Counted from the first letter of the stretch, positions 10,130 to 31,991 are shown. The stretch: DNA of 32,000 bases from Caedibacter taeniospiralis (GCF_002803295.2 NZ_PGGB02000001.1:30001-62000); one strand, 5' to 3'. Notes: generated by a model not told the origin, from the sequence alone. Numbers and translations: made by a program.

Positions 10130-10188
10130 TATCACACTAAAATCCCAGCTACTTTAAATTGTGGATATTTTTTAAGGAACCTCCATCA

Positions 10189-13100
10189 ATGAACGCAAAA
10201 ATTGCGAACTTAGACATGCTTATTCACTGCTATCAGAAAATGTATAGCATCCGTCAAATTGATAATACTGAAGCCGAAATGGTTAATAGTGGCAAAGCCA
10301 ACTTTCTAGCCTCATCCAAAGGACACGAAGGTGCCGCTATATTTGCTGAATATCTTAAACCTCAGGATTGGCTACATTGCCATTACCGTGACAAGCCTCT
10401 TATGCACGCCCGCGGCATGGAAGCTAAAACGTTTTTTTACAGCTCATTATGCAAAGCCGAAGGGGTTTCTAATGGACGCCAAATGGTTATTGGCGTAAGT
10501 GAACGTAAACTCAATATTGTCAGCATCATTACGCCCGTTGGCAATCAGGCATTGCCCGCAGTGGGGATCGCCCAAAGTATCAAAAACCAGGCTGACCATC
10601 CTGTTGTCTACTGTGGCATGGGTGACGGTACGACGCAACAGGGTGAAGTTCTAGAAGCTTTTGCTGAAGCAAAGCGCCGCCAGTTACCTGTTCTGTTTGT
10701 AGTCCAGGATAACGACTATGCTATTTCCACAAAAACGCGAGGTAAAACTTTCTTTTCACTACCTGATCAATCACAACCTGATCGGTTTTATGATATTCCA
10801 ATTAGCCATATCGATGGTACTAAGCCTTTTGCAGAACATGAGAAAATTGGGAGCATCATTAGCACTATGCGCAAAGATCGCGCGCCGCACATCATCATAT
10901 TTAAAGTTGAACGTTTAAATAGCCATAGCAACGCGGATGATCATCGCATTTATCGCCATCATGACGAACTGAAGTCTATCTTACAACGAGATCCTGTCAC
11001 TTTAAGTCGCGAATTTTTACTGGCACATGGCGTCAAAGAAAATTTCTTACAGGAAATGGAGGCAAAAACTTTACAATGCGTTAAAGAAGCGATGGAGCTG
11101 GCGTTAAAAGGCTCCACCCCACAACCTTGCTTTGATGCTGAATCGCCACTTCCAGCACATCTCTTACCCCATGCGCACGAGTATCGTGGTGACTTTTCTC
11201 AGCTAACACGCCTTGGAATGGGGGCCGCCATGCGTGAGGTATTTCGCCAGCGCTTACTTCGTGATGATCGCGTTTGCCTTTTGGGAGAAGATATTGAAGA
11301 TGAGAAAGGAGATGTCTTTGGCGTCACCAAAGGTTTATCGACACAATTTCCAGGACGCGTTGTTAATAGTCCATTAGCAGAGGCGACCATCATGGGGGTC
11401 ACCATTGGAATGGCGCTTACTGGCAAACGTCCTGTTGCGTTTATCCAGTTTGCTGATTTTATGCCTCCCGCGTACAACCTGCTTTTTACAGAATTAGCCA
11501 CCATGTACTGGCGCTCTAATGGTGATTGGGAATGCCCCGTAATCATCTTTGCCGCGTGTGGTGGCTACCGCCCAGGTTTAGGACCATTTCATGCACAAAC
11601 CAATGAGGGGACCTTTGCGCACATTCCTGGCATTGATGTCTACATGCCTTCAAATGCCGCAGATGCTGCTGGCATGTTGAATGCTGCCTTTGAATCTAAT
11701 CGCCCTAGCGTATTTTTGTACCCTAAAAAGTTACTTAACAATGCCAGCGTTGAAGACACAACTTCTACCGATGTCGATAAACAACTCGTGCCTGTGGGTA
11801 AGGCGCGAATTGTTAAAGCGGGGTCAGATTTAACTCTTATTGGCTGGGGAAATACGGTATCCTTGTGCCAAGAAGTTGCTGAAACCCTCGAAACCGTGGG
11901 CATTGACAGTGAAATCATCGATCTGCGCACGATTAAGCCTTATGATTTGCAAACGGTCTTAGCATCAGCTGAAAAAACCAGACATTTAATCGTCACGCAT
12001 GAAGATAATCTTACTTGTGGCGTTGGTGGTGATTTGATTGCTTCTGTGGCTGAAAACGCCAAGCATCCGATTAAAGTCAAACGCGTTACACGTGCCGATA
12101 CTTATGTACCGTGCAACTTTGACAATCAAATGGAAGTTTTGCCTTCCTATGAACGCATCCTAACTGCGGCGGCAGGGCTTTTAGACCTTTCTCTTGAATG
12201 GGAGGTGAAAAATCGCAATGATGCAGGCTTTTACAATGTTGAGGTAATTGGTGCGAGCCCATCTGATGAGAGCGTGTTAATCACTGAGCTACACGTTAAA
12301 GTAGGGGATAAGATCAAAGTTGGTGATAAATTGGTTGATCTGGAGGCAAGTAAATCAGCAGGGGAAATTTTATCTCCAAGTAATGGCACCATTGAAGAGA
12401 TTTATGTGACACAATCAGAGCGTGCCAGCGTTGGTGATAACTTATTAAAACTGCGCCTACCCGAGGGCTCCCATGATGAGCAAAAAACTCAAAAGCGCCC
12501 AATATTAACGCGCAAGATTCAAGAAGAAATCGCAAGACAAAATAAGCAGCACAGCATCTACCCTGTAGGGATAAGCACACCAAGCTTTAAAACAGGATCA
12601 AGATTAGTCACTAATGATGAGCTATTAAAGCATTTCCCTGAACACAACTCCCATGACATCATTGATCGCACGGGAATTGAATCACGGTTTTGGCTTAAGG
12701 ATGATGAGAATATCGTTGAGCTTGCAGCAGAAGTTGCCACAGAGGCTTTGACAAAGGGCAACTTAGGTCTTGCTGATATTGATATGGTGATTTGCGCAAC
12801 GACAACCCCTGATCAATACATATCACCATCCATGGTCTGCTTGATTTTAGAAAGACTCTACCAAGCTTATGGTGAACACCATATCCCCGCCTATGATATC
12901 AATGCAGCGTGCAGCGGTTACTTGTATGCGCTGCAAAATGCACGCGATTATTTGCAAACAAGACCTAATAAGCGGGTGCTTTTAATCACTGCTGAATACA
13001 TGACAAAACGCATGGATCCGACGGATTTTGATACGGCATTTTTATTTGGTGATGCTGCCACTGCTACCATTATTAACGGTGATCAGTATCAAAAAGATTC

Positions 13101-13524
13101 CAGAGCAGTTATTGAGGAAATCTCATTGACCGCAATTGCTGAAAGTGGAGAAGTGCTTAACATTCCAACGGCTGAATCGAAGTACACCCAATTGCAAGGC
13201 AAAAAACTGTTCACCTTTGCGGTTAAAACCATGTCGATGATCATGCACAAATGTTGTCAGCAAGCCAATATCGCGCTAAACAGTGTCGATCTAGTGATTC
13301 CTCATCAAGCCAATCAGCGTATCTCAAATGCGGTAGAAAAGCGCTTAAAAATGCACCCTGGAACTTTGTATAGCAACATCGCTCGCTTTGGAAACACCTC
13401 ATCGTGTACGATTCCTATTGCACTAAGTGAAACACTCGATAAGCAATCGGCAGACAAAACAGTTGCTCTTTGTGCTTTTGGTTCAGGTTTCACTGCAGCT
13501 GCTGCACTTTTACGCACAAAGTAG
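10189..13524 (+). CDS. Multidomain fusion protein: 2-oxoacid dehydrogenase E1-alpha + E1-beta + lipoyl-type domain + KAS III (FabH-like) domain
   Basis: One uninterrupted frame. I prefer the ATG at 10189 (AAGGA at 10174-10178); the ORF track starts at the TTG at 10159. The E1-alpha part (about 10201-11148) has the TPP motif GDG (10621-10629)...QDNDYAIS, GRQM and HSNADDHRIYR. The E1-beta part (about 11200-12186) has LLGEDIEDEKGDVFGVTKGL...RVVNSPLAEATIMG...RPVAFIQFADF. The lipoyl-type domain (about 12229-12459) has VGDKLVDLEASKSAGEILSPSNGTIEEI, with the Lys codon at 12352-12354. A 33-aa charged linker follows. The KAS III part (12559-13521) has Cys in INAACSG (12910-12912), His in PHQAN (13303-13305) and Asn in FGNTSS (13393-13395). 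Confidence 0.9.
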   Translation: MNAKIANLDMLIHCYQKMYSIRQIDNTEAEMVNSGKANFLASSKGHEGAAIFAEYLKPQDWLHCHYRDKPLMHARGMEAKTFFYSSLCKAEGVSNGRQMVIGVSERKLNIVSIITPVGNQALPAVGIAQSIKNQADHPVVYCGMGDGTTQQGEVLEAFAEAKRRQLPVLFVVQDNDYAISTKTRGKTFFSLPDQSQPDRFYDIPISHIDGTKPFAEHEKIGSIISTMRKDRAPHIIIFKVERLNSHSNADDHRIYRHHDELKSILQRDPVTLSREFLLAHGVKENFLQEMEAKTLQCVKEAMELALKGSTPQPCFDAESPLPAHLLPHAHEYRGDFSQLTRLGMGAAMREVFRQRLLRDDRVCLLGEDIEDEKGDVFGVTKGLSTQFPGRVVNSPLAEATIMGVTIGMALTGKRPVAFIQFADFMPPAYNLLFTELATMYWRSNGDWECPVIIFAACGGYRPGLGPFHAQTNEGTFAHIPGIDVYMPSNAADAAGMLNAAFESNRPSVFLYPKKLLNNASVEDTTSTDVDKQLVPVGKARIVKAGSDLTLIGWGNTVSLCQEVAETLETVGIDSEIIDLRTIKPYDLQTVLASAEKTRHLIVTHEDNLTCGVGGDLIASVAENAKHPIKVKRVTRADTYVPCNFDNQMEVLPSYERILTAAAGLLDLSLEWEVKNRNDAGFYNVEVIGASPSDESVLITELHVKVGDKIKVGDKLVDLEASKSAGEILSPSNGTIEEIYVTQSERASVGDNLLKLRLPEGSHDEQKTQKRPILTRKIQEEIARQNKQHSIYPVGISTPSFKTGSRLVTNDELLKHFPEHNSHDIIDRTGIESRFWLKDDENIVELAAEVATEALTKGNLGLADIDMVICATTTPDQYISPSMVCLILERLYQAYGEHHIPAYDINAACSGYLYALQNARDYLQTRPNKRVLLITAEYMTKRMDPTDFDTAFLFGDAATATIINGDQYQKDSRAVIEEISLTAIAESGEVLNIPTAESKYTQLQGKKLFTFAVKTMSMIMHKCCQQANIALNSVDLVIPHQANQRISNAVEKRLKMHPGTLYSNIARFGNTSSCTIPIALSETLDKQSADKTVALCAFGSGFTAAAALLRTK

Positions 13525-17041: not shown

Positions 17042-17887
17042 TTATTTCAATTGTTTAAGCTCGCCCACACTTAAGCCAGTTGCTGCGGATATTTGCTCAT
17101 CCGTAAGACCCAATTGTTTTAAATTCTTCGCTACCTCAAATTTGCCCTTGACAATTCCTTCCGCTCTAGCCTCTGCTTTGGCAATCTCCATATTATTCAC
17201 ATAAGCATAATGCTCATCCTCGATTTTCTCATATGCCAAAAGTTCTTCTTCTGTCCAGTTAAATGACTTCATTTCATCTAAGGCTTCGTGAATCGTTACC
17301 TCTTGCATAAGGTGACTGGGGAAATGCTCGCCTTCTTCGGCATGTTTGAAAAAGTAAATCCATTTATCCAGAATGCTGGTGAGCTCATCCGCGGACTTAT
17401 GGAATTTGTCCAGCTCGATAAAGGTATAACTAAAATCTTTAAGATAATTCTTATGGGTGGTTTGCTCAAGCATCACATGATAGGAAATATAGTGATTATG
17501 TTCTGGCAGAATGGTTTTGTTACAGATCGCGAGGAAAACCACTTCTTTCAAATCTTTATACTCGAGCTTTTTGACACGCTGCCCAATATAGGCACGTGAG
17601 GCATAGTACTGTGCGCGCTTGAGATACTCCAGAGTCGAAACCACCTGCATTTCGATGATAAATTTGTTGCCATTTTGATCCTGGCACATCACATCGACGA
17701 TGCTTATGCGCTGTTCATGCACCTCAGGCAAGTAAATGGTGGGCAGAAACTCTACGCTTTCAATGCGGCTCGCGCGAGCCAGCACGTCATTTAAAAAATG
17801 AATCAGGATGCCCTTGTTTTTCTCGGTGCCAAATAAGCGCCTAAAGGCAATATCGTTCTTAGGATCTAAATATTTCTGGATGGGCAT
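17042..17887 (-). CDS. PD-(D/E)XK nuclease family protein (PDDEXK_2 / Rpn-type putative transposase)
   Basis: MPIQKYLDPKNDIAFRRLFG...ILIHFLNDVL...ISIVDVMCQDQNGNKFIIEMQV is the characteristic N-terminal nuclease core of this family. The C-terminus has an HTH-like tail (LKQLGLTDEQISAATGLSVGELKQL). The ATG at 17885-17887 has AAGG 9 nt upstream. Confidence 0.8.
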   Translation of the reverse strand: MPIQKYLDPKNDIAFRRLFGTEKNKGILIHFLNDVLARASRIESVEFLPTIYLPEVHEQRISIVDVMCQDQNGNKFIIEMQVVSTLEYLKRAQYYASRAYIGQRVKKLEYKDLKEVVFLAICNKTILPEHNHYISYHVMLEQTTHKNYLKDFSYTFIELDKFHKSADELTSILDKWIYFFKHAEEGEHFPSHLMQEVTIHEALDEMKSFNWTEEELLAYEKIEDEHYAYVNNMEIAKAEARAEGIVKGKFEVAKNLKQLGLTDEQISAATGLSVGELKQLK

Positions 17888-17916
17888 GATCAACTACCTT
17901 GGTTAAAACTGTGCGG

Positions 17917-18729: not shown

Positions 18730-20172
18730 CTAAAACAACCCATAAACAGGGACAATAAGAGCTACCAACAGTGTAGGGAATAGACCAAGAAGTAGAATAA
18801 GACCTGCGTTAATGCTCAGACCAAACAGCGTCACTTTGTTGGCATAGACTGGGGTTTGGTTTTTGGGCGGATCAAAGTACATCGATTTGATTACGCGCAA
18901 ATAGTAGTAACAGGCAATCGCGGACATGACCAAAGCATAAATCGCCAGACCAATATTGTCTGTATCAACTAAGCCCATAATAACAAATAGTTTGGCGGTA
19001 AACCCTGATAATGGCGGGATTCCTGCCATCGAAAACATCACGATCAACATCAGAAAAGCAACCCATGGGTTGCGACGATTAAGACCTGCAAAATCCGCCA
19101 AATGTTCAACCTCATTACCCTTGACGCTTAACACGATCAGCACACCAAAAGCCGCAGCCGAGGTAAGCACATAGATCACGATGTAGAATAATGCGGTAGA
19201 AACAGCAAAAGCATCTGGCTTCAGCACCAGTGCCAATAGTACAAAACCAATATGGGAAATCGTTGAATAGCCCAGCATCCGTTTGACATTTTTCTGCGCT
19301 AACGCCAGTAAATTACCTAAGAAAATCGAAAGAACTGCCAGCACCGTCAATACTTTCGTCCACGCAAACACTTGAGCTGGCATGCCAATCATTAAAATAT
19401 TTACCAACATTGCAAAGGCTGCCACTTTGGGTACTGAGGCTAAAAATGCCGTCACTGCATTTGGTGATCCCTCATACACATCAGGCACCCACATATGAAA
19501 TGGTACAGCTCCTAGTTTAAAGGTGGCGGTGGCAATCATCAGCACCATTGCAATAAGCACAATTTTTGAATGCACTTCATCAGGTGTTGCTAAAAATTTA
19601 CCAATCTCTGAAAGATCCAGACTGCCTGTCACCCCATAAATAAACGACATGCCATAAAGAAGGAGACCTGACGCAATCGCCCCTAATACAAAGTACTTGA
19701 TCGCAGCTTCCGCACCTATGGCAAAGCCTCGACGAATTGCCAAAAGCGCATATAGAGGCAAAGATAAAAGCTCTAAGCCAATGTAGATGGTGAGTAGACT
19801 ATGTGCTGAAGTCAATACTATCGCGCCTAAGATAGACAACAGGGCTAACACATAAAACTCACCTTGCGGCAACTGCCTATCCTCGATGTATTCCTTACAA
19901 TATATAAAGACAAAAAATGCCACAAGAACGATAACTTCCTGCAAAACAAAGGTTAATTCATTCGATAAGGTTTGCCCTTCAAAACCGACATGGACGTGCG
20001 TGAGCAGCGATTTCAATAAGATCCAGGCAGCAATGATCAAAGAAATCTGCGTCAAGATATAGGCGATATTCTTAATTTTCTTACCCAGGAATAAATCTGC
20101 AAGCATTACAACCAATGCTGCAGCACCCAAAGTGATTTCAGGAAATATCGTTGAAATATTCATTAATATCAT
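18730..20172 (-). CDS. nuoN: NADH-quinone oxidoreductase subunit N
   Basis: 480-aa polytopic ND2-family antiporter-like subunit. It is the last gene of the collinear nuo operon. Confidence 0.93.
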   Translation of the reverse strand: MILMNISTIFPEITLGAAALVVMLADLFLGKKIKNIAYILTQISLIIAAWILLKSLLTHVHVGFEGQTLSNELTFVLQEVIVLVAFFVFIYCKEYIEDRQLPQGEFYVLALLSILGAIVLTSAHSLLTIYIGLELLSLPLYALLAIRRGFAIGAEAAIKYFVLGAIASGLLLYGMSFIYGVTGSLDLSEIGKFLATPDEVHSKIVLIAMVLMIATATFKLGAVPFHMWVPDVYEGSPNAVTAFLASVPKVAAFAMLVNILMIGMPAQVFAWTKVLTVLAVLSIFLGNLLALAQKNVKRMLGYSTISHIGFVLLALVLKPDAFAVSTALFYIVIYVLTSAAAFGVLIVLSVKGNEVEHLADFAGLNRRNPWVAFLMLIVMFSMAGIPPLSGFTAKLFVIMGLVDTDNIGLAIYALVMSAIACYYYLRVIKSMYFDPPKNQTPVYANKVTLFGLSINAGLILLLGLFPTLLVALIVPVYGLF

Positions 20173-20178
20173 TTGTCG

Positions 20179-21792
20179 TTACCCTATTGCCACGGCATGT
20201 GCCGCCTGTATGATGTGTGTTGAGGCCGCTGAAGATAATTGTAAAATTAGTTCTGGATAAACCCCAAACCAGATCGTTGGAATCGCCAATAACACTAACA
20301 CAAAAACTTCCAGTCCTGCAATGTCCTTTAAATTGGCAACCTGAGTTGTCACAATTTTACCGAAAAATACACGCTTATACATCCAAAGGGTATAGGCTGG
20401 AGCAATAATCATTGTCAGCCCGGCAATTAAGGCTACCCAAATCGAATATTTAAACACGGCTAAAATAATCAGGAACTCCCCGACAAAACCACTGGTTCCT
20501 GGTAAGCCTACATTTGCCAAGCAGAACAACATGAAAAAGCTTGCAAAGACTGGCATGGATCGTGCCACTCCTTGAAAATCCGCGATATTGCGTGTGTGCA
20601 TTCTCAGATATAAATAGCCACAACCGATAAACATACCACCCGCTGAAAACGCATGAGCTATCATCTGAAACATTGCACCCTGAATCGCAAGCTGTGCATC
20701 TGCCATTCCCAACACAGGATCTGGATTATGCTCTACCAATAAAAAAATCGAAAACATTGCCAAGGTTACCAATCCCATATGTGAGATGGATGAGTAGGCA
20801 ATCAGACGTTTAAAGTCAGTTTGGGCGATAGCAACAATGCCAACATAGACGATGGCAATAAGCGATATACCGATTAAAAACCAGTCTAACAACGCGGTAA
20901 TGCTTGGAATCAATGGCAATACAAAGCGCAGGAAACCATAAGCACCAAGTTTAAGCATCAATGCCGCAAGAACCACCGAACCCCCAGCAGGCGCTTCAGA
21001 GTGCGCATCTGGCAACCAGGAATGCAATGGCCACATCGGGATTTTCACCGCAAAGGCTAAGAAAAATGCGCCAAATAAAAGCCACTGAGCCGTTAAGGTA
21101 ACATTCACTAACTGCCCCATATTGTTGACTTGTGTCGCCCAGAAAATAAAGTTCTGAATTGAGAAAGTCCCGCTGTCAACCAAACTGCTACCAGGCAATG
21201 CCGCGACTTGCTGTTGAATATACAAAAAAGCGAGAAGCAGAAAAATTGAGCCTGAAAAAGTGTACAGGAAATATTTAATCGCCGCATAGGCTTTTTGCTT
21301 GCCTCCCCAGATACCGATACCTAAGGTTGTCGGAATCAGTAACGCTTCCCAGAAAATATAAAAGAGCATTGTATCCTGTGCCATAAATACCGCATTGGTG
21401 AGTCCTGTGGTAATCAGGAAGATCGCCATATATTGTCTTAATCTCACTGTGATACTACGCCATGCAGCAAGGATGATCACGATGTTGGTAAAACTTGTTA
21501 AGATAATGAATAAAACGGAAAAACCATCCACACCTAAGTAATAATATACGGCATCATTATTAGCAAACAAGCTAAACCAGCGCACACGTTCGACAAACTG
21601 CATGCTGGCACTGGTTGGGTCAAACCCAAGGTATAAAGGTATGCAAAGGAGCAGAGTTAAAACGGCAACGGCTAATGCGCTCCAGCGCGCAGCTTCCTTT
21701 TTGCCATCAGGAGACTTGGCAGCCAACACGATAAGACCACCAATAATCGGCACCCATATTAACAAACTCAATAAGTAGTTGGTTATAAACAT
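20179..21792 (-). CDS. nuoM: NADH-quinone oxidoreductase subunit M
   Basis: 537-aa ND4-family subunit (..HSWLPDAHSEAPAGGSVVLAALMLKLGAYG..). It sits between nuoL and nuoN. Confidence 0.93.
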   Translation of the reverse strand: MFITNYLLSLLIWVPIIGGLIVLAAKSPDGKKEAARWSALAVAVLTLLLCIPLYLGFDPTSASMQFVERVRWFSLFANNDAVYYYLGVDGFSVLFIILTSFTNIVIILAAWRSITVRLRQYMAIFLITTGLTNAVFMAQDTMLFYIFWEALLIPTTLGIGIWGGKQKAYAAIKYFLYTFSGSIFLLLAFLYIQQQVAALPGSSLVDSGTFSIQNFIFWATQVNNMGQLVNVTLTAQWLLFGAFFLAFAVKIPMWPLHSWLPDAHSEAPAGGSVVLAALMLKLGAYGFLRFVLPLIPSITALLDWFLIGISLIAIVYVGIVAIAQTDFKRLIAYSSISHMGLVTLAMFSIFLLVEHNPDPVLGMADAQLAIQGAMFQMIAHAFSAGGMFIGCGYLYLRMHTRNIADFQGVARSMPVFASFFMLFCLANVGLPGTSGFVGEFLIILAVFKYSIWVALIAGLTMIIAPAYTLWMYKRVFFGKIVTTQVANLKDIAGLEVFVLVLLAIPTIWFGVYPELILQLSSAASTHIIQAAHAVAIG

Positions 21793-21818
21793 AATATTAA
21801 TCTTCCTTTAAACCCGCC

Positions 21819-23828
21819 TCAATTCACCCAAAAGATGAGCCATGTGATCAGCGCCACCACACCAATAAGCATTACCAATGCGTAATCAAATAAATAACCG
21901 CGTTGCATGCGCGTCATCTTTCTTCCTGCAAAATAAATCAAGTCCGCACTACCTTGAACTGCGGTCTTATCAATCATAAAGATATCAACCACAATCCATA
22001 AGAACTTACTCAACAAAATGACACCCTTGACAAAAATCAAATTATAAAGCCCATCGATGAAATATTTTTTCACTAGGATGTAGTGCAGAATTCCAACGCC
22101 TGAACGCACATTAGCCAACGTTTTGGGGATGCTTGGGATAAGCACATAAAAAATATAAGCCAGAATCAATGCGCCAATTGCCAACCAAAACGGCACGGTC
22201 TGTACCGAATGCGCAATGTAATCCCATGGCGTTTTTGTTGCAGCTTCTTGTGCCAGGCTTGCAACAATCGTCATATTGCCTAAAGCAGGTTGGGAATATT
22301 GCGCAATTGTGTTACCAAAGAAACCGTTAGCATTAGCCAAATTTGGCGTTAATGCTGATTCAAAAAATAACATTCCCGCAAATATTGATGGAATCGCCAA
22401 TAGAATCAGCGGCAGCAAAATAGTCCATGGAGATTCTTTAGTATGCGTTTTCGTATGCGTATCCATTCTTGGTTGACCGTGAAAGGTCATAAAAATCATT
22501 CTAAAGATGTAGAATGAGGTCACAAAAGCACAGGCCAATACAAGATAATAGGCAAATTCATGCCCGGGCAGGGTAGTTTCTGCAACGGCTTCAATGATTA
22601 AATCCTTGGAGAAAAAACCTGAAAATGGGGGTATTGCCGCCAGTGCCCAACCACCAATAATCATACAGATATAGGTAATCGGCATGTATTTTCTTAAGCC
22701 ACCCATCTTGCGCATATCCTGTTCATGGTGGAGGGCTACGATGACTGAGCCTGCCGCCAGAAATAGAAGCGCCTTAAACATCGCGTGCGTCATTAAATGG
22801 AACATGCCAATTGAGAATCCTGACGCCCCTTGTGCCACCATCATATAACCCAATTGCGATAGGGTACAATAAGCGATCACACGTTTAATATCCATCTGGA
22901 CAATCGCGACAAGCCCCATAAACAAACAGGTGATCGCCCCAATAATCATCACAAAACTAAGTGCTGCTGCTGAATGCACAAACATCGGAGATAAGCGCGC
23001 CACCATAAACACCCCAGCAGTTACCATGGTCGCCGCGTGAATCAAGGCGGATATGGGAGTTGGACCTTCCATTGAACCTTCTAGCCAGGTATGTAATGGA
23101 AACTGTGCCGATTTACCCATCGCCCCAATAAACAATAAGACACACATCAAGGTAATCGGACTAAACTCCATACCTAAAAAGGAGATCATCCGAGTGTTAT
23201 CCAGATTAGTCACCTCTGTAAATACAGTACTGTAATCCATCGAATTGCAATAATAAATTACCGCGGCAATACCCAACAAAAATCCAAGATCACCAACGCG
23301 ATTCACAATAAAAGCACGTAAACTCGCCTCATTGGCAGAATCTTTGTCAAAGTAAAACCCGATCAATAAATAGGAAAAAAGTCCAACGCCCTCCCAGCCA
23401 AAGAATAACAATAGGAAGTTATTGCCCATAATGAGGCATAGCATCGCAAAAGTAAAGCCAGAAATATAGGCAAAAAAGCGCGCATAACCTGCCTCACCCT
23501 TCATGTATCCAATGGAATAGATATGCACAAGAGCCGATACAAAGGTCACGATCAACATCATAAATACAGACAACTTATCAACGGTGAAGCTCACTTTCAT
23601 ACCTAAGCTTGGGAATAATGCCCAGTTAAAGTAAGTCGCCGTATAAACTTCATTATTCAGATATACGCCTAGTGCCAATACCAGACTTAATACGAAGGAT
23701 AAAATGACAAGACCTGTGGTAATACAACTAACACCTGTCAATTGCACTTTTTTCGAGAAAAATCCCGCTACAATCGAGCCAAGGGCAGGAGCTAGGATAA
23801 GCATCGCAATAATAAAATCAATTCCCAT
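21819..23828 (-). CDS. nuoL: NADH-quinone oxidoreductase subunit L
   Basis: 669-aa ND5-family subunit (..FPLHTWLEGSMEGPTPISALIHAATMVTAGV..) with a long C-terminal extension typical of NuoL. Confidence 0.93.
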   Translation of the reverse strand: MGIDFIIAMLILAPALGSIVAGFFSKKVQLTGVSCITTGLVILSFVLSLVLALGVYLNNEVYTATYFNWALFPSLGMKVSFTVDKLSVFMMLIVTFVSALVHIYSIGYMKGEAGYARFFAYISGFTFAMLCLIMGNNFLLLFFGWEGVGLFSYLLIGFYFDKDSANEASLRAFIVNRVGDLGFLLGIAAVIYYCNSMDYSTVFTEVTNLDNTRMISFLGMEFSPITLMCVLLFIGAMGKSAQFPLHTWLEGSMEGPTPISALIHAATMVTAGVFMVARLSPMFVHSAAALSFVMIIGAITCLFMGLVAIVQMDIKRVIAYCTLSQLGYMMVAQGASGFSIGMFHLMTHAMFKALLFLAAGSVIVALHHEQDMRKMGGLRKYMPITYICMIIGGWALAAIPPFSGFFSKDLIIEAVAETTLPGHEFAYYLVLACAFVTSFYIFRMIFMTFHGQPRMDTHTKTHTKESPWTILLPLILLAIPSIFAGMLFFESALTPNLANANGFFGNTIAQYSQPALGNMTIVASLAQEAATKTPWDYIAHSVQTVPFWLAIGALILAYIFYVLIPSIPKTLANVRSGVGILHYILVKKYFIDGLYNLIFVKGVILLSKFLWIVVDIFMIDKTAVQGSADLIYFAGRKMTRMQRGYLFDYALVMLIGVVALITWLIFWVN

Positions 23829-23832
23829 CGTC

Positions 23833-24150
23833 TTAGCCTTTTAGTGTATTAAGTTGACTGACATCGATTGTTTTACGTGTCCTAAAAAGTACGACAACAA
23901 TCGCAAGCCCTATTGCCGCTTCAGCCGCAGCTACTGTTAAAATAAAGAACACAAATACATCGCCTGTGCTTTGCGCAAGCATACTCGAAAAGGCGATAAA
24001 GTTAGTATTAACTGCAAGTAGCATGAGTTCAATGGACATCAGTAAAATCAGCAAGTTACGACGATTAATGATAATACCAGCAATGCTCAATGAAAAAATA
24101 ATCGCACTGAAAATTAAATAATGAGTAACAGGTATGGGAATACTAGTCAT
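23833..24150 (-). CDS. nuoK: NADH-quinone oxidoreductase subunit K
   Basis: 105-aa, three-span ND4L-like protein (..[16 protein letters not shown]..). Its ATG overlaps the nuoJ stop (ATGA). Confidence 0.92.
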
Positions 24151-24773
24151 TTAGGCTCTCCCTGATCAGATTTCTGTTGTGCTTCTTTTGCGCTTTTTTC
24201 TACTTTCATTTTAACCATGCTCAAGCGATCTTTGGCTTGCGTTTTAATCTGTACGCTTGGATTAATCGATTTATTGCCTGGCTTTTTACCACGAAAGGTC
24301 AGCGTGATTGCTGCCACCATTGCTGCCAACAGAATCATGCCCGCAAGCTCAAAGGCATAAAGATATTTATTTGAAAACATCTCAGCTCCCAGACTCTCAA
24401 CTGTGCCTAAGCCTCCTGTCATCGTTTTATCTGCAAACGTATGACTCACAACGATTGAAATCAATAATGCAAGGCAAGCACACAGTAAAATGACGATCGG
24501 CCAGTAAAGCACCCATTTTTTCTGTTTGATGACAATATTGATATCCAGCATCATCACCACAAACAGGAACATCACCAATACCGCACCGACATAAACCACG
24601 ATCAAAAGTAGTGCCAGGTACTCCTGTTGCATCGTCAGCCATACGCCCGCGGCTGCAAAGAAAGTAAAAACTTTCGCGATAACGGCGCGCACTGGATTTT
24701 TGGCACTGATGACCAACAGCGCCCCTAAAACAGTCAGCCCTGCAAATACATAAAAGATAATATTAACACTCAT
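24147..24773 (-). CDS. nuoJ: NADH-quinone oxidoreductase subunit J
   Basis: 208-aa ND6-like membrane protein at the expected operon position. It has a charged C-terminal tail. Confidence 0.9.
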
Positions 24774-24779
24774 CTGTTC

Positions 24780-25271
24780 CTACCTAAATGCCTTATCTGC
24801 TTCACGATCCTGGGCAATTTCTTTTTCATATTTATCCCCTATTGCCAGGAGTTTTGCCTTGGTCAAAATATTTTCACCACGATTTTCAAAATGATATTCA
24901 AACACGCGTGTCTCAACGATCGAATCCACAGGACATGACTCCTCACAAAAGCCACAAAAGATGCACTTAAACAAATCAATTTCATATTTTGTTGTGCGCC
25001 TTGAGCCATCTTCGCGTGGTTCAGCTTCAATGGTAATTGCGAGCGCGGGGCACACCACCTCACACAATTTGCAGGCAATGCAGCGCTCCTCACCATTTTC
25101 ATAGCGTCTTAAAGCATGCAGACCGCGAAACCTGCCTGATTGCGGGGTCTTCTCATCTGGATATTGTACCGTTACTTTACGGGTAAAAAAGTGCTTCCCC
25201 GTAATCTTAAGACCCTTTAGCAGCTCCCATAGCAAAAAGGTCTGACAATAGCGTTTGATCGCTTTAAACAT
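24780..25271 (-). CDS. nuoI: NADH-quinone oxidoreductase subunit I
   Basis: Two 4Fe-4S ferredoxin motifs are present, [12 protein letters not shown] and [13 protein letters not shown] prefer the ATG at 25269-25271 (MFKAIKRY...). The ORF-track TTG start at 25292 would overlap nuoH. Confidence 0.92.
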
Positions 25272-25282
25272 TAATAAATCTC

Positions 25283-26296
25283 CTACCACCAAGGACCTAA
25301 GCCAAGTTTAACCATGAAAGCCACAAAAATAACCCATACTAATGTCACTGGAATAAATATTTTCCAGCCCAAACGCATTAACTGATCGTAACGGTATCTT
25401 GGGAAAGTAGCGCGAATCCACAAATACATAAACATGAAGATACCCGTCTTTAAAAACAGCCAAATCATTCCAGGGACAAAACTAAAGAATTGATCTAATA
25501 CGGGGATGCCATCAAATGGAGACATCCAGCCACCTAAGAAAAACACGGCTGTTAATAGACTGATCAAGATCATATTGGCATATTCCGCCAAAAAGAATAA
25601 AGCAAAGCGCGCACCTGAATACTCAACATGGTGTCCTGCGATAATCTCAGACTCGCCTTCAATCACATCAAAGGGCGCGCGTCCAGTTTCTGCAACACCC
25701 GCGATAAAATAAATAATAAACAGAGGGAATAATGGGATAAAGTACCAGTGCCAGATACCGCCTTGTTGCGTTTCAATAATTGTACTGAGATTAAGTGAGC
25801 CTGCGGCAATCAACACCCCAATAATCGCAAACCCCATCGCTAACTCATATGACACCACCTGAGCTGCTGCGCGCAACGCGCCAAACATTGCATACTTAGA
25901 GTTTGACGCCCAACCGGCAATAATCACCCCGTAAACAGCAATGGACGTCATAGCCAAAATATACAAAACACCTGCGTTTATATCAGCAAGTGCCAGTCCC
26001 TTTCCAAATGGGACTACTGCCCAGGCGGCATAAGCAGGCGCAAATGCCAGCATTGGTGCAATAAAAAATAAGTAACGGTTTGACTTCGTAGGGACGATGA
26101 TTTCTTTTAGGAGCAGTTTCACCGCATCAACAATCGGTTGCAAAAGACCAAACGAGCCCACGCGATTCGGACCCACTCTATCCTGCATATAGCCAATGAC
26201 TTTACGCTCCGCATAGGTATAGTACGCTACGACTAGAATCAAAGGAACGACAATCAACAAGACCTTAAGGACAATCCATATAATATCTAAAATCAT
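25283..26296 (-). CDS. nuoH: NADH-quinone oxidoreductase subunit H
   Basis: 337-aa ND1-family protein (..[20 protein letters not shown].., ..ETGRAPFD..). It overlaps the nuoG stop by 4 nt. Confidence 0.93.
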
Positions 26297-28704
26297 GCGC
26301 TCACCACCTCTGTTTTAACTGGCGTGATTGTAACATTTGCCCACTTAGTGCGACAAGGAGACATAAGTTGAAATGGCACAATAATCGTATTTGCCGCTAA
26401 ACCTTCCTCAATGAGGACACCAAGCTCAACCGATTCACCATCTATCGACACTATGGCTCTCGTCGATGATTGCAGTGACTTTTGCTGTGCAAACTTCGTT
26501 GAGATCCGCAAAGCTCGATAATAAGCAGCATCTTTGGTTGTTTGTAACGGCTTCCCACGCCTTAAGGTATCAAAGGTGCTATACATAGAAATGGCAGGTA
26601 GCACCGTATAGCCCTCCTGAAGCTCTGGCAAAGCATTGCTTAGTAAGTTATCAGGGTTAATTTGGGGCATGACTTTTTCAATTGCGGCATATTCCTGATA
26701 AATCTCATCAAGCGATTGATAGCTAAAGCCATCAAGTGCCAGCAAGTTTGCTAATACACGCAATACTTTCCATAATGGCTTACTTGCTTCATAGGGTGGA
26801 ATAACCGCCTTAAAGCGTTGTGTTTGTCCCACAATATTAATAAATGAGCCATCTTCTTCAAAGTGTGTGCAAATGGGCAATATGATATCGGCATATTCGC
26901 GCATCGCATCGGTTGCGTAAGCAGAAAATACCGCAACAATGTCAATCGCCTTGAGTGCTTCCAGCGTTTTCCGTCCATCGATATAATCCAACTCGGGTTC
27001 AATCCCGAAAGTTAATAGCAGTTTTGTGTTGGCACTTAAAATTGACGAAGCAGACATTCCTGATTGCAGATTTTCAAGACCTCCAGGCAAATACTCTGAA
27101 GCTGCTCCAGTCAGTAGAGCACCCCTGGCATTGGCACCAAAGCTAAGCACCCCACCTTTTGCATGAAGCAGTTGTTTTAATTCGCTAAATAACGCACAAA
27201 TTCCGGCAAAATCTTTATTCAAAATCGCATCAAATCCCAAAATAAGTACAGGATTTTCTCTGGAAATCAACTCTGCTGCCAACGCCTCAATCTCAGGCAA
27301 GCTTTCCACGCTATCGATCACTTTCTTAACTTGTGTCGATTGAATAGGCGTGGCAATTTTTTGAGATACCGCCTTTACCAGGTTTGCCAGCGCATAAATA
27401 AGCTCATTCGCTTCGATTTGCATCGTTTCAACATCATAGTTGAAATCATAGTACTGACTATTTAACGCAAATACCCTGGAACCCTTTTTGAACGCCGTAT
27501 GAACGCGATGATTAATCAAGGGAATCTCTTTACGCAGGTAGCTGCCAACGAGTAAGACCGCATCAGCATTTTCAATTTCATCCAGGAGGCAATCAAAACC
27601 AACTCCAGTATGCAGTGAAGTTTTATGCGCCCCTTGTTTTAAGCGCGTATCAATATTATTTGAACCAATTTGGCGTATCAGTTTTTGCAGTAAGTAAAGC
27701 GATTCTGTCGTTGCCGACTCAGAGGCAAGGGCTGCAATGCTATTTACCCCATCCTGTGCCTTGGTCTCTTCAATCGCGACTTTAATAAAATCTAGGGCTT
27801 CTTCCCAAGACACTTCAACCCAACGATCATTCTTCTTGATCATGGGCTCAGTTAGGCGATCCTCACTATAAACGCCGGTATAATAAAAACGGTCTTTATC
27901 GGCAAGCCATGTCTCATTAACTGCTTCATTTTCTTTGGGCACAACGCGCATCAGCTGGTTACGTCTGACATGCGCATAGATATTTGCCCCCACCGCATCA
28001 GCCGCTGAAATCGTTGGATATTGCTGCAACTCCCAGGCACGAGCCTGGAATCTAAAGGGCTTCGAGGTCAGAGCCCCAACGGGACACAGATCAATAATAT
28101 TACCTGAAAGCTCTGAATTAACGGTTTTTGCCACATAGGTGCTAATTTGGGTGTGGTCTCCGCGCCCCATGGCGCCAAGCTCCTTATCGCCACTGATTTC
28201 TTCACCAAAGCGGACACAACGCGTGCACTGAATACAGCGCGTCATGTCAGTGGCAATCAATGAACCTAAACTTGGATCATCAAATACGCGCTTTGTTTCG
28301 TGGTACTTGGAAACGTCATCTCCATAACCTATTGCAATATCTTGCAACTCGCACTCGCCACCTTGATCGCAAATAGGACAATCCAGTGGGTGATTAATGA
28401 GTAAGAATTCCATAACTTTCTTTTGATAAGAAATAGTTGTTGGTGATTTGGTAAAGACCTTCATGCCATCCATAATGGGGGTGGCACACGCAGGAGACGG
28501 TTTTCTTGCCCCTTCGACTTCAACCAGGCACATTCTGCAATTGGCTGCCACTGAGAGTTTTTTATGATAACAAAAGCGGGGAATATAAATGCCATGCCTA
28601 TCCGCCACCTCAATGATCATCTCACCAGGACTCACCGCATATGACTGCCCATTGATTTCAATACTCAATTGTTTCGTTACTTGTTTTTCTGACACGGGAG
28701 TCAC
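26293..28704 (-). CDS. nuoG: NADH-quinone oxidoreductase subunit G
   Basis: 803 aa. The N-terminal Fe-S cysteine clusters are [29 protein letters not shown] and [15 protein letters not shown]. The body is molybdopterin-oxidoreductase-like. The start is uncertain: GTG at 28702-28704 or GTG at 28693-28695. Confidence 0.9.
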
Positions 28705-28783
28705 CCTTTATCAATTATGTTTGTTCAATTTACCTGCGGTGACCATATTTCCGCCCACTCTATGGTGCTGAGCACCGATGCGC

Positions 28784-28939
28784 TTTAAAAAACACCCCGC
28801 CTTGCAAGCCTGACCACTTTAGAGTGGTCAGGCAAGCTCGGCACCCCTCTTGAAAAGAGGGGAATATCCACCGAAGCTACCGCCTAATTCCCCTCTTTTC
28901 AAGAGGGGTGGCAGCCGCAGGCTGACGGGGTGTTTAAAA
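28784..28939. repeat. Mosaic palindromic repeat element inside the nuoF-nuoG intergenic spacer
   Basis: The imperfect terminal inverted repeat is TTTAAAAAACACCCCG (28784-28799) paired with CGGGGTGTTTAAAA (28926-28939). Internal hairpins are at 28808-28833 (GCCTGACCACT/AGTGGTCAGGC), 28844-28862 and 28890-28908 (both CCCCTCTT/AAGAGGGG). The core is homologous to 15991-16065. Confidence 0.6.
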
Positions 28940-28958
28940 TTACTAGAACTCTACTATC

Positions 28959-30227
28959 TTAAACACCAACGGTATGCTTATCTGCAATCATACGTTCAAA
29001 CTCATGTCTGAACTTTTTAATATAACTTTGCACAGGCCATGCCGCGGCATCCCCCAAACCACAAATCGTATTTCCTTCAATATTCGAGGCGACACGCGTG
29101 AGATTATCGATATCCTTGAGATTACCTTCACCATGCAAAATACGATCCAGAGTTCTTGCCAACCATCCAGTACCCTCTCTGCAAGGTGTGCACTGTCCAC
29201 AGGATTCTTCATAATAAAATTCAGCCAGGCGTGCCAACAGTTCAACCATGCACGTGTCTTCGTCTAAGACAACAACCGCACCTGAACCAAGCATTGATCC
29301 TGCCTGCCCAATCGCTTCATAGTCCATGGTGAGATTCATCATCTCATCTCCCGTGAGAATTTTACATGAACTGCCACCTGGAATCACCGCCTTGATTTTT
29401 TTGCCACCACGCACGCCTCCTGCCATCGCTAGTAAATCCTTAAACGGCGTGCCTAAACCAATTTCAAACACCCCAGGAGAATTCACATGTCCTGAGACGC
29501 AGAACAATTTAGTTCCACCACTTTTCTCGGTACCCAGTTTCTGAAACCACTCACCGCCACGCTCTAAAATCGGCGGCACAGAAGCGTAAGTTTCAGTGTT
29601 ATTAATATTGGTGGGGCAATCATATAAGCCCTTACTTGCAGGAAAAGGGGGTTTAAATCTTGGCAATCCTTTTTTCCCTTCCAATGAGTTGAGTAATGCT
29701 GTTTCCTCACCACAAATATAAGCACCAGCTCCAATCGAGCAGTATAAGTTGAAATCAACCCCTGAACTACGCAAATTAAAACCAATGAGTCCCATGGCGC
29801 GCGCCTCATTGAGTGCTGCTTCAAAGCGTGCTATCGGCTCATAAAACTCGCCGCGAATATAGTTGTAACCTACTGTTGAGCCCGTCACATAGCCCGCAAT
29901 CGCCATGCCTTCAATGAGTTGATGTGGGTTGTTACGTAGAATCTCACGATCCTTGCAAGTCCCTGGCTCCCCCTCATCGGAATTACACACGACATATTTT
30001 TGTCCAGGAACATTTCGTGGCATAAAGCTCCACTTAAGCCCTGTCGGAAATCCCGCTCCCCCGCGCCCACGAAGACCCGATTTTTTTAGTTCCGCAATAA
30101 TGACTTCAGGCGGAATTTTCTCATCTAAAATTTTTTTCCAATACGAGTATCCACCAACAGATTCATAGGACTTTAGCGACCATGGTCGTTCAAGATGCAA
30201 GGTTCTAAAACAAACTTCATTCGCCAT
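28959..30227 (-). CDS. nuoF: NADH-quinone oxidoreductase subunit F
   Basis: The NADH/FMN site is [16 protein letters not shown] and the C-terminal 4Fe-4S motif is [12 protein letters not shown]...CGLGDAA. Confidence 0.95.
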
Positions 30228-30230
30228 CTA

Positions 30231-30728
30231 TTACTCCAAAGAATCAATAATTTGGTCAACTTTTGCAATGCTTAGATTTTCATAAAAAACCTTATCCACT
30301 TCGAGCATCGGCGCGCCACAACACGCTCCTTGGCATTCAACCGATCTTAAGGTAATGCGACCATCAGCCGTTGTTTCGCCCGCTTTAATCCGAAGTCGAT
30401 TCTCGATGTGAGTCATGATTTTCTTAGCACCGTTTAACATACACGATAAATTTGTACACACGTTAAGCTTATGCCTGCCAACCTCATGCAAATCATACAT
30501 GCTATAAAAAGTTGCCACCTCATAAACCGAAGCTTGCGGCACTTCTAAATACTGCGCGAGCTTTTCCATCAACTCTTCGCTCAAATACCCATTATTATAA
30601 TCTTGCAATACATGCAAGCCTGGAATAATAACTGACCTCTTCTGGTTGACTGGGTAGCGCTTTTCCCAGTTCTCCAGGAGTTCTGTGATATGCGCGGGGA
30701 AAATTTCTTTTTTATTTAACATAGACAA
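30231..30728 (-). CDS. nuoE: NADH-quinone oxidoreductase subunit E
   Basis: 165 aa with the thioredoxin-like 2Fe-2S cysteines (CTNLSC ... CQGACCGAP). Confidence 0.93.
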   Translation of the reverse strand: MSMLNKKEIFPAHITELLENWEKRYPVNQKRSVIIPGLHVLQDYNNGYLSEELMEKLAQYLEVPQASVYEVATFYSMYDLHEVGRHKLNVCTNLSCMLNGAKKIMTHIENRLRIKAGETTADGRITLRSVECQGACCGAPMLEVDKVFYENLSIAKVDQIIDSLE

Positions 30729-30737
30729 ACCCTAAAC

Positions 30738-31991
30738 TTATCTATCTACATCGCCAAACACGATGTCTTGTGTGGCAATAATCGCTGGCACATCTGATAA
30801 CATATGACCGCTTAACATTTCATTCATCGAGCTTAAATGCGTAAACCCAGGCGCTCTGATTTTCAGGCGATAGGGTTTATTGGCGCCATCTGACACCAAA
30901 TAAATGCCAAACTCACCTTTTGGATGTTCAGTCCCTACATAAACCTCGCCTTCTGGGACGCAATAGCCCTCAGAAAACAGTTTAAAATGGTGGATTAACG
31001 CCTCCATGCTATTCTTCATCTCATCACGCCTGGGAGGTGTGACTTTATGATTTGGCGCCATAATCGGACCTTCATTGCTGCGTAACCACTCAACACATTG
31101 GCGAATAATCTTATTCGACTCGCGCATTTCAGCCATTCGCACCAGGTAGCGATCATAGCAATCACCCTTGCTACCCACAGGAATATCAAACTCCACCTCA
31201 TCATAAACATCATAAGGCTGTTTTTTGCGCAGATCCCAGGCAACGCCCGAGGCTCTTAACATGGGACCACCAAAGCCCAGCGCCTTGGCACGCTCTTTCG
31301 TAACCACGCCAATACCGACTGTGCGCTGTTTCCAGATTCTGTTATTTGTCAATAAGTTCTCATATTCATCAATGCACTTTGGAAAGCGCTCGGTGAAATC
31401 CCATATAAAGTCCAAGAGCGAACCTTGACGGTTTTTATTAATTGCTTTTAACTTGCTTTTGGAAGTAAAACGCGATTTCTCATATTTTGGCATCTGCAAA
31501 GGCAGATCACGCGCAACACCACCTGGACGGAAATAGGTCGCGTGCATTCTAGCACCCGACACGGCTTCATAGCAGTCAAATAGATCTTCACGCTCACGAA
31601 ATGCGTATAAGAACATCGTCATCGCGCCCAAATCCAGGCTATTTGCCGCGGTCCATAACAGATGATTGAGAATGCGGGTAATTTCAGCGAACATTACCCT
31701 GATATATTGCGCACGCTTTGGCACTTCAACTTGCAAAAGTTTTTCAATCGCAAGTACATACGCGTGCTCATTACACATCATCGACACATAATCCAAACGA
31801 TCCATATAGCCGATGCTTTGATTAAATGGCTTAGATTCCGCAAGCTTTTCCGTACCTCTATGTAAGAGCCCAACATGCGGATCAGCGCGAACAACTACCT
31901 CACCATCTAACTCCAATACCAGACGCAATACCCCATGAGCTGCCGGGTGCACAGGTCCAAAGTTCATCGTATAGTTTTTAAATTCAGCCAT
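30738..31991 (-). CDS. nuoD: NADH-quinone oxidoreductase subunit D
   Basis: 417 aa of the 49-kDa subunit family. The N-terminus is [22 protein letters not shown] and the C-terminus is DIVFGDVDR. It has its own ATG at 31989-31991, so it is not fused to nuoC. Confidence 0.95.

Follow-up and report, generated by a model that had tools for sequence, protein, structure and literature searches.

Bacteria such as Bacillus, Staphylococcus and Listeria make branched-chain fatty acids by an established route, which runs from the branched-chain 2-oxoacid dehydrogenase (BCKDH) complex (E1alpha2beta2, E2 and E3) through acyl-coenzyme A (acyl-CoA) to FabH, a beta-ketoacyl-acyl carrier protein (ACP) synthase III (KAS III). 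The subject of this report is a gene of Caedibacter taeniospiralis, an endosymbiont of Paramecium, in which parts of both systems are found on one polypeptide. It occupies 10189..13524 on the plus strand of a 32,000-nucleotide stretch (GCF_002803295.2, NZ_PGGB02000001.1:30001-62000), the whole of which is called the window here, and its 1,111 amino acid product, an exact match to WP_100551425.1, consists of E1-alpha, E1-beta, a lipoyl domain and a KAS III. With the BCKDH and FabH route the fusion shares the E1 fold and catalytic residues, the lipoyl-bearing Lys, a KAS III with a Cys-His-Asn triad and the ACP-docking Arg, and its net reaction would be the same conversion of a 2-oxoacid into a 3-ketoacyl-ACP. 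Unlike that route, it is a single chain without an E2 core, a peripheral subunit-binding domain (PSBD), a predicted acyl-CoA intermediate or the Trp32/Arg151 clamp of FabH. The conventional route is its nearest functional analogue. From its sequence the fusion is probably, though with a good measure of doubt, an enzyme complete in itself, in which a 2-oxoacid supplies the start of an acyl chain and the KAS III stands in place of the E2 core.

In architecture, the closest precedent for a lipoyl arm that supplies a carrier-protein pathway is the QncN/QncL/QncM system. There, and in SclQ1-4, an E1-like thiamine diphosphate (ThDP) enzyme, a lipoyl domain and an E2-type acyltransferase load a C2 unit onto ACP (PMC6335953). 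As in QncN/L/M, a ThDP-dependent, E1-type module of the fusion would load the lipoyl arm, and the cargo would enter a pathway on carrier proteins instead of being passed to free CoA. QncL, however, retains an E2-type acyltransferase and no C-C bond is formed, whereas the acceptor domain of the fusion is a predicted decarboxylating ketosynthase; Qnc starts from a ketose phosphate, the fusion, as proposed, from a 2-oxoacid; and Qnc has a dedicated ACP, whereas the window has no ACP gene and dedicated ACPs accompany only divergent relatives of the fusion. With an E2 the protein has in common a lipoyl domain with a conserved Lys, N-terminal in E2, but it possesses neither the PSBD nor a core like that of chloramphenicol acetyltransferase.

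A single stop-free frame extends on the plus strand from 10159 (TTG) or 10189 (ATG) to 13524. Pfam domain calls were judged against the curated gathering cut-offs and NCBIfam models against their own. Six Pfam domains exceeded their cut-offs, in the order E1-alpha, E1-beta, lipoyl, KAS III that had been proposed in the original prediction. The E1-alpha module is an E1_dh domain (residues 17-313, 10237..11127; 2.3e-40, 138.9 bits against a cut-off of 22), and the E1-beta module (11218..12132) comprises Transket_pyr (residues 344-517; 7e-28, 97.9 bits against 27) and Transketolase_C (residues 537-648; 6.8e-30, 104 bits against 25.9), with TM (template modelling) scores of 0.92-0.93 to E1-beta chains. 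These are followed by the lipoyl domain (approximately residues 684-756, 12238..12456; Biotin_lipoyl 694-755, 2.7e-11, 43.6 bits), which is all-beta in the structure model, a linker (residues 757-794, 12457..12570), and the FabH-like KAS III module (residues 795-1111, 12571..13521), with ACP_syn_III (residues 902-967; 2.6e-20) and ACP_syn_III_C (residues 1023-1109; 2.7e-23) and a hit above cut-off to the NCBIfam KAS III model PRK09352 (260.9 against 249 bits). No match to an E2 catalytic (2-oxoacid_dh) or E3-binding (PSBD) domain was obtained with Pfam or NCBIfam, and the missing E2 core had likewise been noted beforehand. No solved PDB chain contains the fusion, the PDB matches being to separate E1-alpha, E1-beta and FabH chains only. 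The AlphaFold2 model has a mean predicted local distance difference test score (pLDDT) of 86.7 and a predicted TM score (pTM) of 0.75, and its KAS III part superposes on FabH structures with TM scores of 0.85-0.93.

Relatives of the fusion were found in at least 577 species genomes when one genome was scanned for each species, so that the architecture, whose spread the original prediction had proposed to check, is a widespread one. Among the best 80 of these loci, 80/80 are full length, and they come from about nine bacterial lineages: Fastidiosibacteraceae (Caedibacter, Cysteiniphilum, Fastidiosibacter, Facilibium, Fangia) and other Thiotrichales isolates, metagenome-assembled genomes (MAGs) of Neisseriaceae and Burkholderiales, many Planctomycetota, and Spirochaetota, Lentisphaerales, Verrucomicrobia, Sumerlaeota and Nitrospirales. 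More than 110 full-length homologues (1,095-1,140 amino acids, 48-96% identity) carry the same six domains. Searched exhaustively with HMMER against 1.84 billion cluster representatives, the lipoyl-KAS III half found a further 37 representatives with the E1alpha-E1beta-lipoyl-KAS III layout and identities down to about 31%. An artefact, whether a chimeric assembly, a read-through between neighbouring genes or a pseudogene in decay, is hardly conceivable: the identical protein is present in NCBI from independent assemblies, the full-length homologues and the 80 complete loci span many phyla, the catalytic residues are invariant and the model is confident. An assembly chimera in particular is excluded by the conservation of the fusion in so many full-length homologues and genome loci. 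A literature search, which misses most subscription-journal papers, returned no description of the fusion and no characterised orthologue, in keeping with the earlier statement that no characterised enzyme with this four-module layout was known. One paper considered as an account of it (PMC8204192) was unrelated on inspection.

Residue invariance was assessed in alignments of 119 homologues (alignments A1 and A2 for the E1 motifs). The thiamine pyrophosphate (TPP)-binding motif Gly145-Asp146-Gly147...Asn175 (10621..10713) is invariant in both A1 and A2, and so, across the 119 sequences, is Glu398 of the PLAE motif in the E1-beta part, presumably, by its motif, the beta-subunit Glu that activates TPP; both motifs had been picked out in the first reading of the sequence. 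His246 (10924..10926), in R-L-N-S-H-S-N-A-D-D, is also invariant and falls, in alignment with human BCKDH E1-alpha, on the second His of the G-H-H-S motif, which we take to be His291. His468 (FHAQ, E1-beta part) is kept in at least 90% of the homologues. According to the titles of PDB entries 1OLS and 1OLX, His291-alpha and His146-beta' of human BCKDH are tied to reductive acylation of the lipoyl group. Since His246 aligns with a His of this function, the E1 part is apparently built to load a lipoyl arm and not to decarboxylate only. The closest solved relative of the E1-alpha part is the E1-alpha of the Thermus branched-chain 2-oxoacid dehydrogenase (121.7 bits), followed by human BCKDH (82), Geobacillus pyruvate dehydrogenase (PDH; 72), human PDH (48) and Pseudomonas putida BCKDH (42). 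Its HS-x-x-DD...YR motif is similar to BCKDH-type sequences; the nearest NCBIfam models for the E1 part are PDH models, all far under their cut-offs.

The predicted lipoylation site is Lys722 (12352..12354) in the sequence E-A-S-K-S. This is the Lys that had been singled out originally, and it is invariant in the 119 sequences; in the relative P0132 the classical D-K-A stands here. In the linker only the short basic motif K-x-P-I-L-x-R-K is conserved, followed by 15-30 variable, low-complexity residues, and the linker's sole stretch of very low model confidence, the lowest in it, lies at residues 779-787. A hidden remnant of a PSBD or E2 was considered for residues 757-794 and rejected, because only this short motif is conserved; no relaxed Pfam scan of the linker alone was made. 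To judge by its sequence the linker is a flexible tether and not a PSBD or core. The motif itself (K-R-P-I-L-T-R, residues 769-775, 12493-12513) forms a beta-strand in the AlphaFold model with pLDDT of about 60-66, a strand that possibly packs against an adjacent domain.

In the KAS III module Cys908 (12910..12912), the nucleophile corresponding to Cys112 of E. coli FabH, His1039 (13303..13305; E. coli His244) and Asn1069 (13393..13395; E. coli Asn274) are each present in 119/119 homologues, which bears out the Cys and the Cys-His-Asn triad of the original prediction. Equally invariant (119/119) is Arg1044 (13318..13320), at the position of E. coli Arg249, which we take to be the ACP-docking Arg. 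The E. coli FabH sequence used as reference was identical to PDB 1HN9, to which the module is similar in fold (TM about 0.9), triad, Arg249, Phe213 and Gly209. It differs from this canonical enzyme in being fused behind E1 and lipoyl domains, in two substitutions (Trp32 to Asp, Arg151 to Phe), in a one-residue insertion near Phe87, which makes the primer-pocket alignment there ambiguous, and in its score against the TIGR00747 (fabH) model.

The two substitutions fall on the CoA-binding site. In complexes of E. coli FabH with CoA the adenine ring is sandwiched by Trp32 and Arg151 (PMC4606726). At the Trp32 position, occupied by Trp in 6/6 solved FabHs, the fusion has Asp823 (12655..12657; Asp in 119/119 homologues), and at the Arg151 position (Arg in 6/6 solved FabHs) it has Phe947 (13027..13029; Phe in 113/119, the rest Leu or Met). 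In the set from the exhaustive search both clamp residues occur in 50/62 stand-alone KAS III cluster representatives and in 0/37 lipoyl-linked ones. The substitutes in the lipoyl-linked group are not uniform: Asp, Glu, Lys, Ala or Gln is found at one of the two positions and Phe, Pro or Tyr at the second. Both groups keep the triad without exception, and at the Arg249 position there is Arg in 62/62 stand-alone and Arg or Lys in 37/37 lipoyl-linked representatives, divergent as the latter are. Because the clamp has been lost while the triad and the ACP-docking Arg were kept, direct transfer from lipoyl to ketosynthase is favoured. That the arm hands its acyl group straight to the ketosynthase Cys, for a CoA-independent start of fatty-acid or acyl-lipid synthesis from 2-oxoacids, and that in some species the fusion could be the principal condensing enzyme of initiation or the route to branched-chain primers, is in our judgement about evenly poised between right and wrong.

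Several observations weigh against this view. The Fisher test of the clamp contrast (50/62 against 0/37, p about 4e-17) is overstated, since the sequences are related. Trp32 is also missing in 10/62 stand-alone sequences; seven of the exceptions (315-390 amino acids; Asp, Glu or Ala at the Trp32 position) may be truncated fusions, and several such sequences show Asp/Phe or Glu/Phe at the clamp positions. P0205, the KAS III of a split form of the gene described below, retains Tyr and Arg at these positions, and clamp loss is therefore not strictly tied to the lipoyl link; judged by its sequence, P0205 may represent an intermediate stage with acyl-CoA still as a substrate. The fusion protein scores below the cut-off of TIGR00747 (231.7 against 292.1 bits). 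Finally, the likeness of the E1 part to BCKDH sequences only weakly suggests a specificity for branched-chain 2-oxoacids, and pyruvate or other short 2-oxoacids may serve as well, since the family is common in Planctomycetota.

The split form was found on eight metagenome contigs, where a 661 amino acid E1-alpha-beta gene precedes a 442 amino acid lipoyl-KAS III gene in a housekeeping-like context (der, gpsA, radC). The TGA of the first gene overlaps the TTG start of the second (TTGA), and the pair is predicted to be translationally coupled. Here the lipoyl domain is joined to the KAS III, as it would be to an E2 core, and not to E1. This bears on the proposal that the modules are co-located only, with the E1 and lipoyl parts feeding a separate E2 in trans and the KAS III using acyl-CoA like an ordinary FabH; fusion would then bring closeness or shared regulation without novel chemistry. 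Such a division of labour would follow the established sequence of BCKDH, acyl-CoA and FabH, and the clamp residues of P0205 are near-canonical. Against it stand not only the joining of lipoyl to KAS III in the split form but also the want of a PSBD to recruit an E2/E3 core, the absence of an E2 from the window and from the 80 neighbourhoods, and the failure of any of the 37 lipoyl-linked representatives to show the full adenine clamp. We hold it to be very improbable.

Further relatives indicate what the KAS III may produce. P0133 (L081:10001-15829, MAG GCA_029777335.1) is a complete gene of 1,942 amino acids on a 63.6-kb contig, in which the E1alpha-E1beta-lipoyl-KAS III series is followed by a polyketide synthase (PKS)-type ketoreductase (KR) and a PP-binding (ACP) domain. 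An ACP gene of 81-83 amino acids lies directly 3' of each of two others, P0184 (L083:633-3560) and P0206 (L082:18-1621). A ketoreductase after the KAS III points to a beta-keto product, and the ACP, whether in cis (P0133) or adjoining (P0184, P0206), to an acceptor bound to a carrier. These relatives also help in weighing the suggestion that the KAS III is an acyltransferase only, a thiolase-fold substitute for the E2 core which would pass the acyl group from lipoyl through Cys908 to holo-ACP or CoA with no condensation, so that acyl-ACP or acyl-CoA would be the product. The module does occupy exactly the position of an E2 core; FabH itself begins with a thioester exchange that is reversible, and acyltransferases of KAS III type are known. 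A pure transferase, however, would not need His1039 and Asn1069, which serve malonyl decarboxylation, or Arg1044, so that their invariance (119/119, and kept across very divergent clades) counts against it, as do the beta-keto product implied by P0133 and, where CoA is to be the acceptor, the loss of the adenine clamp. A role confined to acyl transfer thus appears improbable.

Several details of these relatives may be recorded. Two stretches of about 240-260 amino acids in P0133 (approximately 1100-1336 and 1690-1942) have no Pfam match, and a DUF6088/AbiEii pair lies 3' of its gene. The 630 bp upstream of P0184 (L083) yielded no E1-alpha, and P0206, at a contig edge, may be truncated. The divergent subfamily of these two has a chalcone-synthase-like H-P-G-S-K-R motif, with Ser in place of E. 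coli Asn247. P0132 (769 amino acids) had been taken for a split form without E1-alpha; this was rejected, since its start was mis-called and in L084 the frame runs on upstream without a break through a complete E1-alpha, the full frame being L084:4609-8615.

The scheme that emerges is as follows. The fused E1-alpha-beta, with TPP, would decarboxylate a 2-oxoacid, probably branched-chain, possibly pyruvate or 2-oxobutyrate, and would reductively acylate the lipoyl group on Lys722 of its own chain or of the partner chain in a dimer. The S-acyl-dihydrolipoyl arm, carried on flexible linkers, would then enter the pantetheine tunnel of the KAS III and pass the acyl group to Cys908. Malonyl-ACP would dock at Arg1044 and be decarboxylated with the help of His1039 and Asn1069, and Claisen condensation would give a 3-ketoacyl-ACP for type II fatty-acid synthesis, with a dedicated ACP in some relatives. 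The dihydrolipoyl arm would be re-oxidised in trans by the dihydrolipoamide dehydrogenase (E3) of the cell, much as E3 (the L protein) re-oxidises the H protein of glycine cleavage, a lipoyl carrier with no PSBD tether; the cargo and partner enzymes of H protein differ from those of the fusion, and the comparison is an analogy only. It is from sequence that we infer lipoylation, the transfer from arm to Cys908, the use of a 2-oxoacid, independence of CoA, ACP as the acceptor in this protein and re-oxidation by E3. The suggestion in the original prediction that the arm may pass its acyl group directly to the KAS III Cys gains support from the loss of the clamp, the split form and the variants with KR or ACP.

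With the mechanism unchanged, the product might not go into bulk membrane lipid but start a specialised lipid or a signal molecule, for instance an N-acyl amino acid, a lipid of polyketide type or a diffusible signal. Divergent relatives do stand beside dedicated ACPs, a PKS-type KR or an N-acyl amino acid synthase of the FeeM type. The last is found in the P0132 lineage, where it is encoded 15 bp after the P0132 gene and precedes a FAD_binding_4 protein; these neighbours suggest a specialised acyl-lipid pathway there. Within the C. taeniospiralis clade, and at the majority of the 80 loci, on the other hand, the fusion gene stands outside any biosynthetic cluster, and its retention in an endosymbiont and in many phyla fits a core function better; a specialised product is thus unlikely for the fusion at large. 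For the neighbour analysis 1,061 open reading frames (ORFs) from the best 80 loci, with flanks of up to 10 kb, were clustered. A conserved operon partner (lpd, lipoate ligase, acpP or fab genes) was sought among them and rejected, as no neighbour family occurs in more than 11/80 loci. No E2 gene and no stand-alone fabH was found in the 80 neighbourhoods, and ACP was represented by a single weak ACP-like ORF. The presence in at least 577 species genomes with no conserved operon partner suggests a self-sufficient enzyme of the housekeeping type.

Were the proposed mechanism true, it would add one more alternative start of type II fatty-acid synthesis. FabY and malonyl-ACP decarboxylase are other initiation routes that do not involve FabH. 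Initiation by FabB has been described in Pseudomonas putida (PMC10869286). These known routes start from acetyl-CoA, acyl-CoA or malonyl-ACP alone, and none is known to proceed via a 2-oxoacid and a lipoyl arm; a route from a 2-oxoacid to the start of a fatty acid without CoA appears to be previously undescribed. Lipoyl arms are known to serve E2 cores, which pass the acyl group to CoA or, in QncL, to ACP, and delivery to a ketosynthase would be a new use of the arm. Some Gram-negative lineages and endosymbionts could then prime straight or branched fatty acids with no call on the acyl-CoA pool, and the gene would offer a compact, single-gene module for engineering branched- and odd-chain fatty acids from 2-oxoacids derived from amino acids.

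The annotation of the gene is divided. NCBI names the product "beta-ketoacyl-ACP synthase 3" and the JGI cluster-mate is a "2-oxoisovalerate dehydrogenase E1 component"; the reading proposed here would correct this widespread split between ketosynthase and dehydrogenase E1 names. The start also differs, NCBI giving 1,111 amino acids from the ATG at 10189 and the JGI cluster-mate having 1,121, the length expected from the TTG at 10159. The ATG is preferred because of the lengths of the homologues, the closest of which cover the 1,111 residues at 100%, and because an AAGGA lies approximately 10 nt 5' of it. A promoter and terminator scan gave no signal above chance.

Within the window the neighbours of the fusion gene are a LysR regulator, a major facilitator superfamily (MFS) transporter, topA, a haloacid dehalogenase (HAD)-type hydrolase and the nuo operon, and no E2, E3, ACP or fab gene was found elsewhere in it. 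The respiratory complex I operon (homologues of NuoD, F, G, H, I, J, L, M and N) lies on the minus strand at 18730-31991 and continues past the end of the window. Between it and the HAD hydrolase gene is a transposase gene of the PD-(D/E)XK family (PDDEXK_2, 2.6e-50), also on the minus strand (17042-17893).

Other lineages show neighbours of their own. At eight planctomycete loci (e.g. L069:13316-13942) a conserved 208 amino acid ORF lies directly 3' of the fusion gene, and by eye its N-terminus has a likeness to a bacterial-microcompartment shell domain. At loci of Neisseriaceae MAGs (four at position -1, e.g. L011:7669-9966) an ORF of about 765 amino acids lies directly 5' of the fusion and has, again by eye, the look of a pyruvate-producing NADP-malic enzyme (MaeB); its place is taken by an aconitase-like gene at spirochaete loci. 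These MaeB-like and aconitase-like upstream genes may reflect clade-level synteny only.

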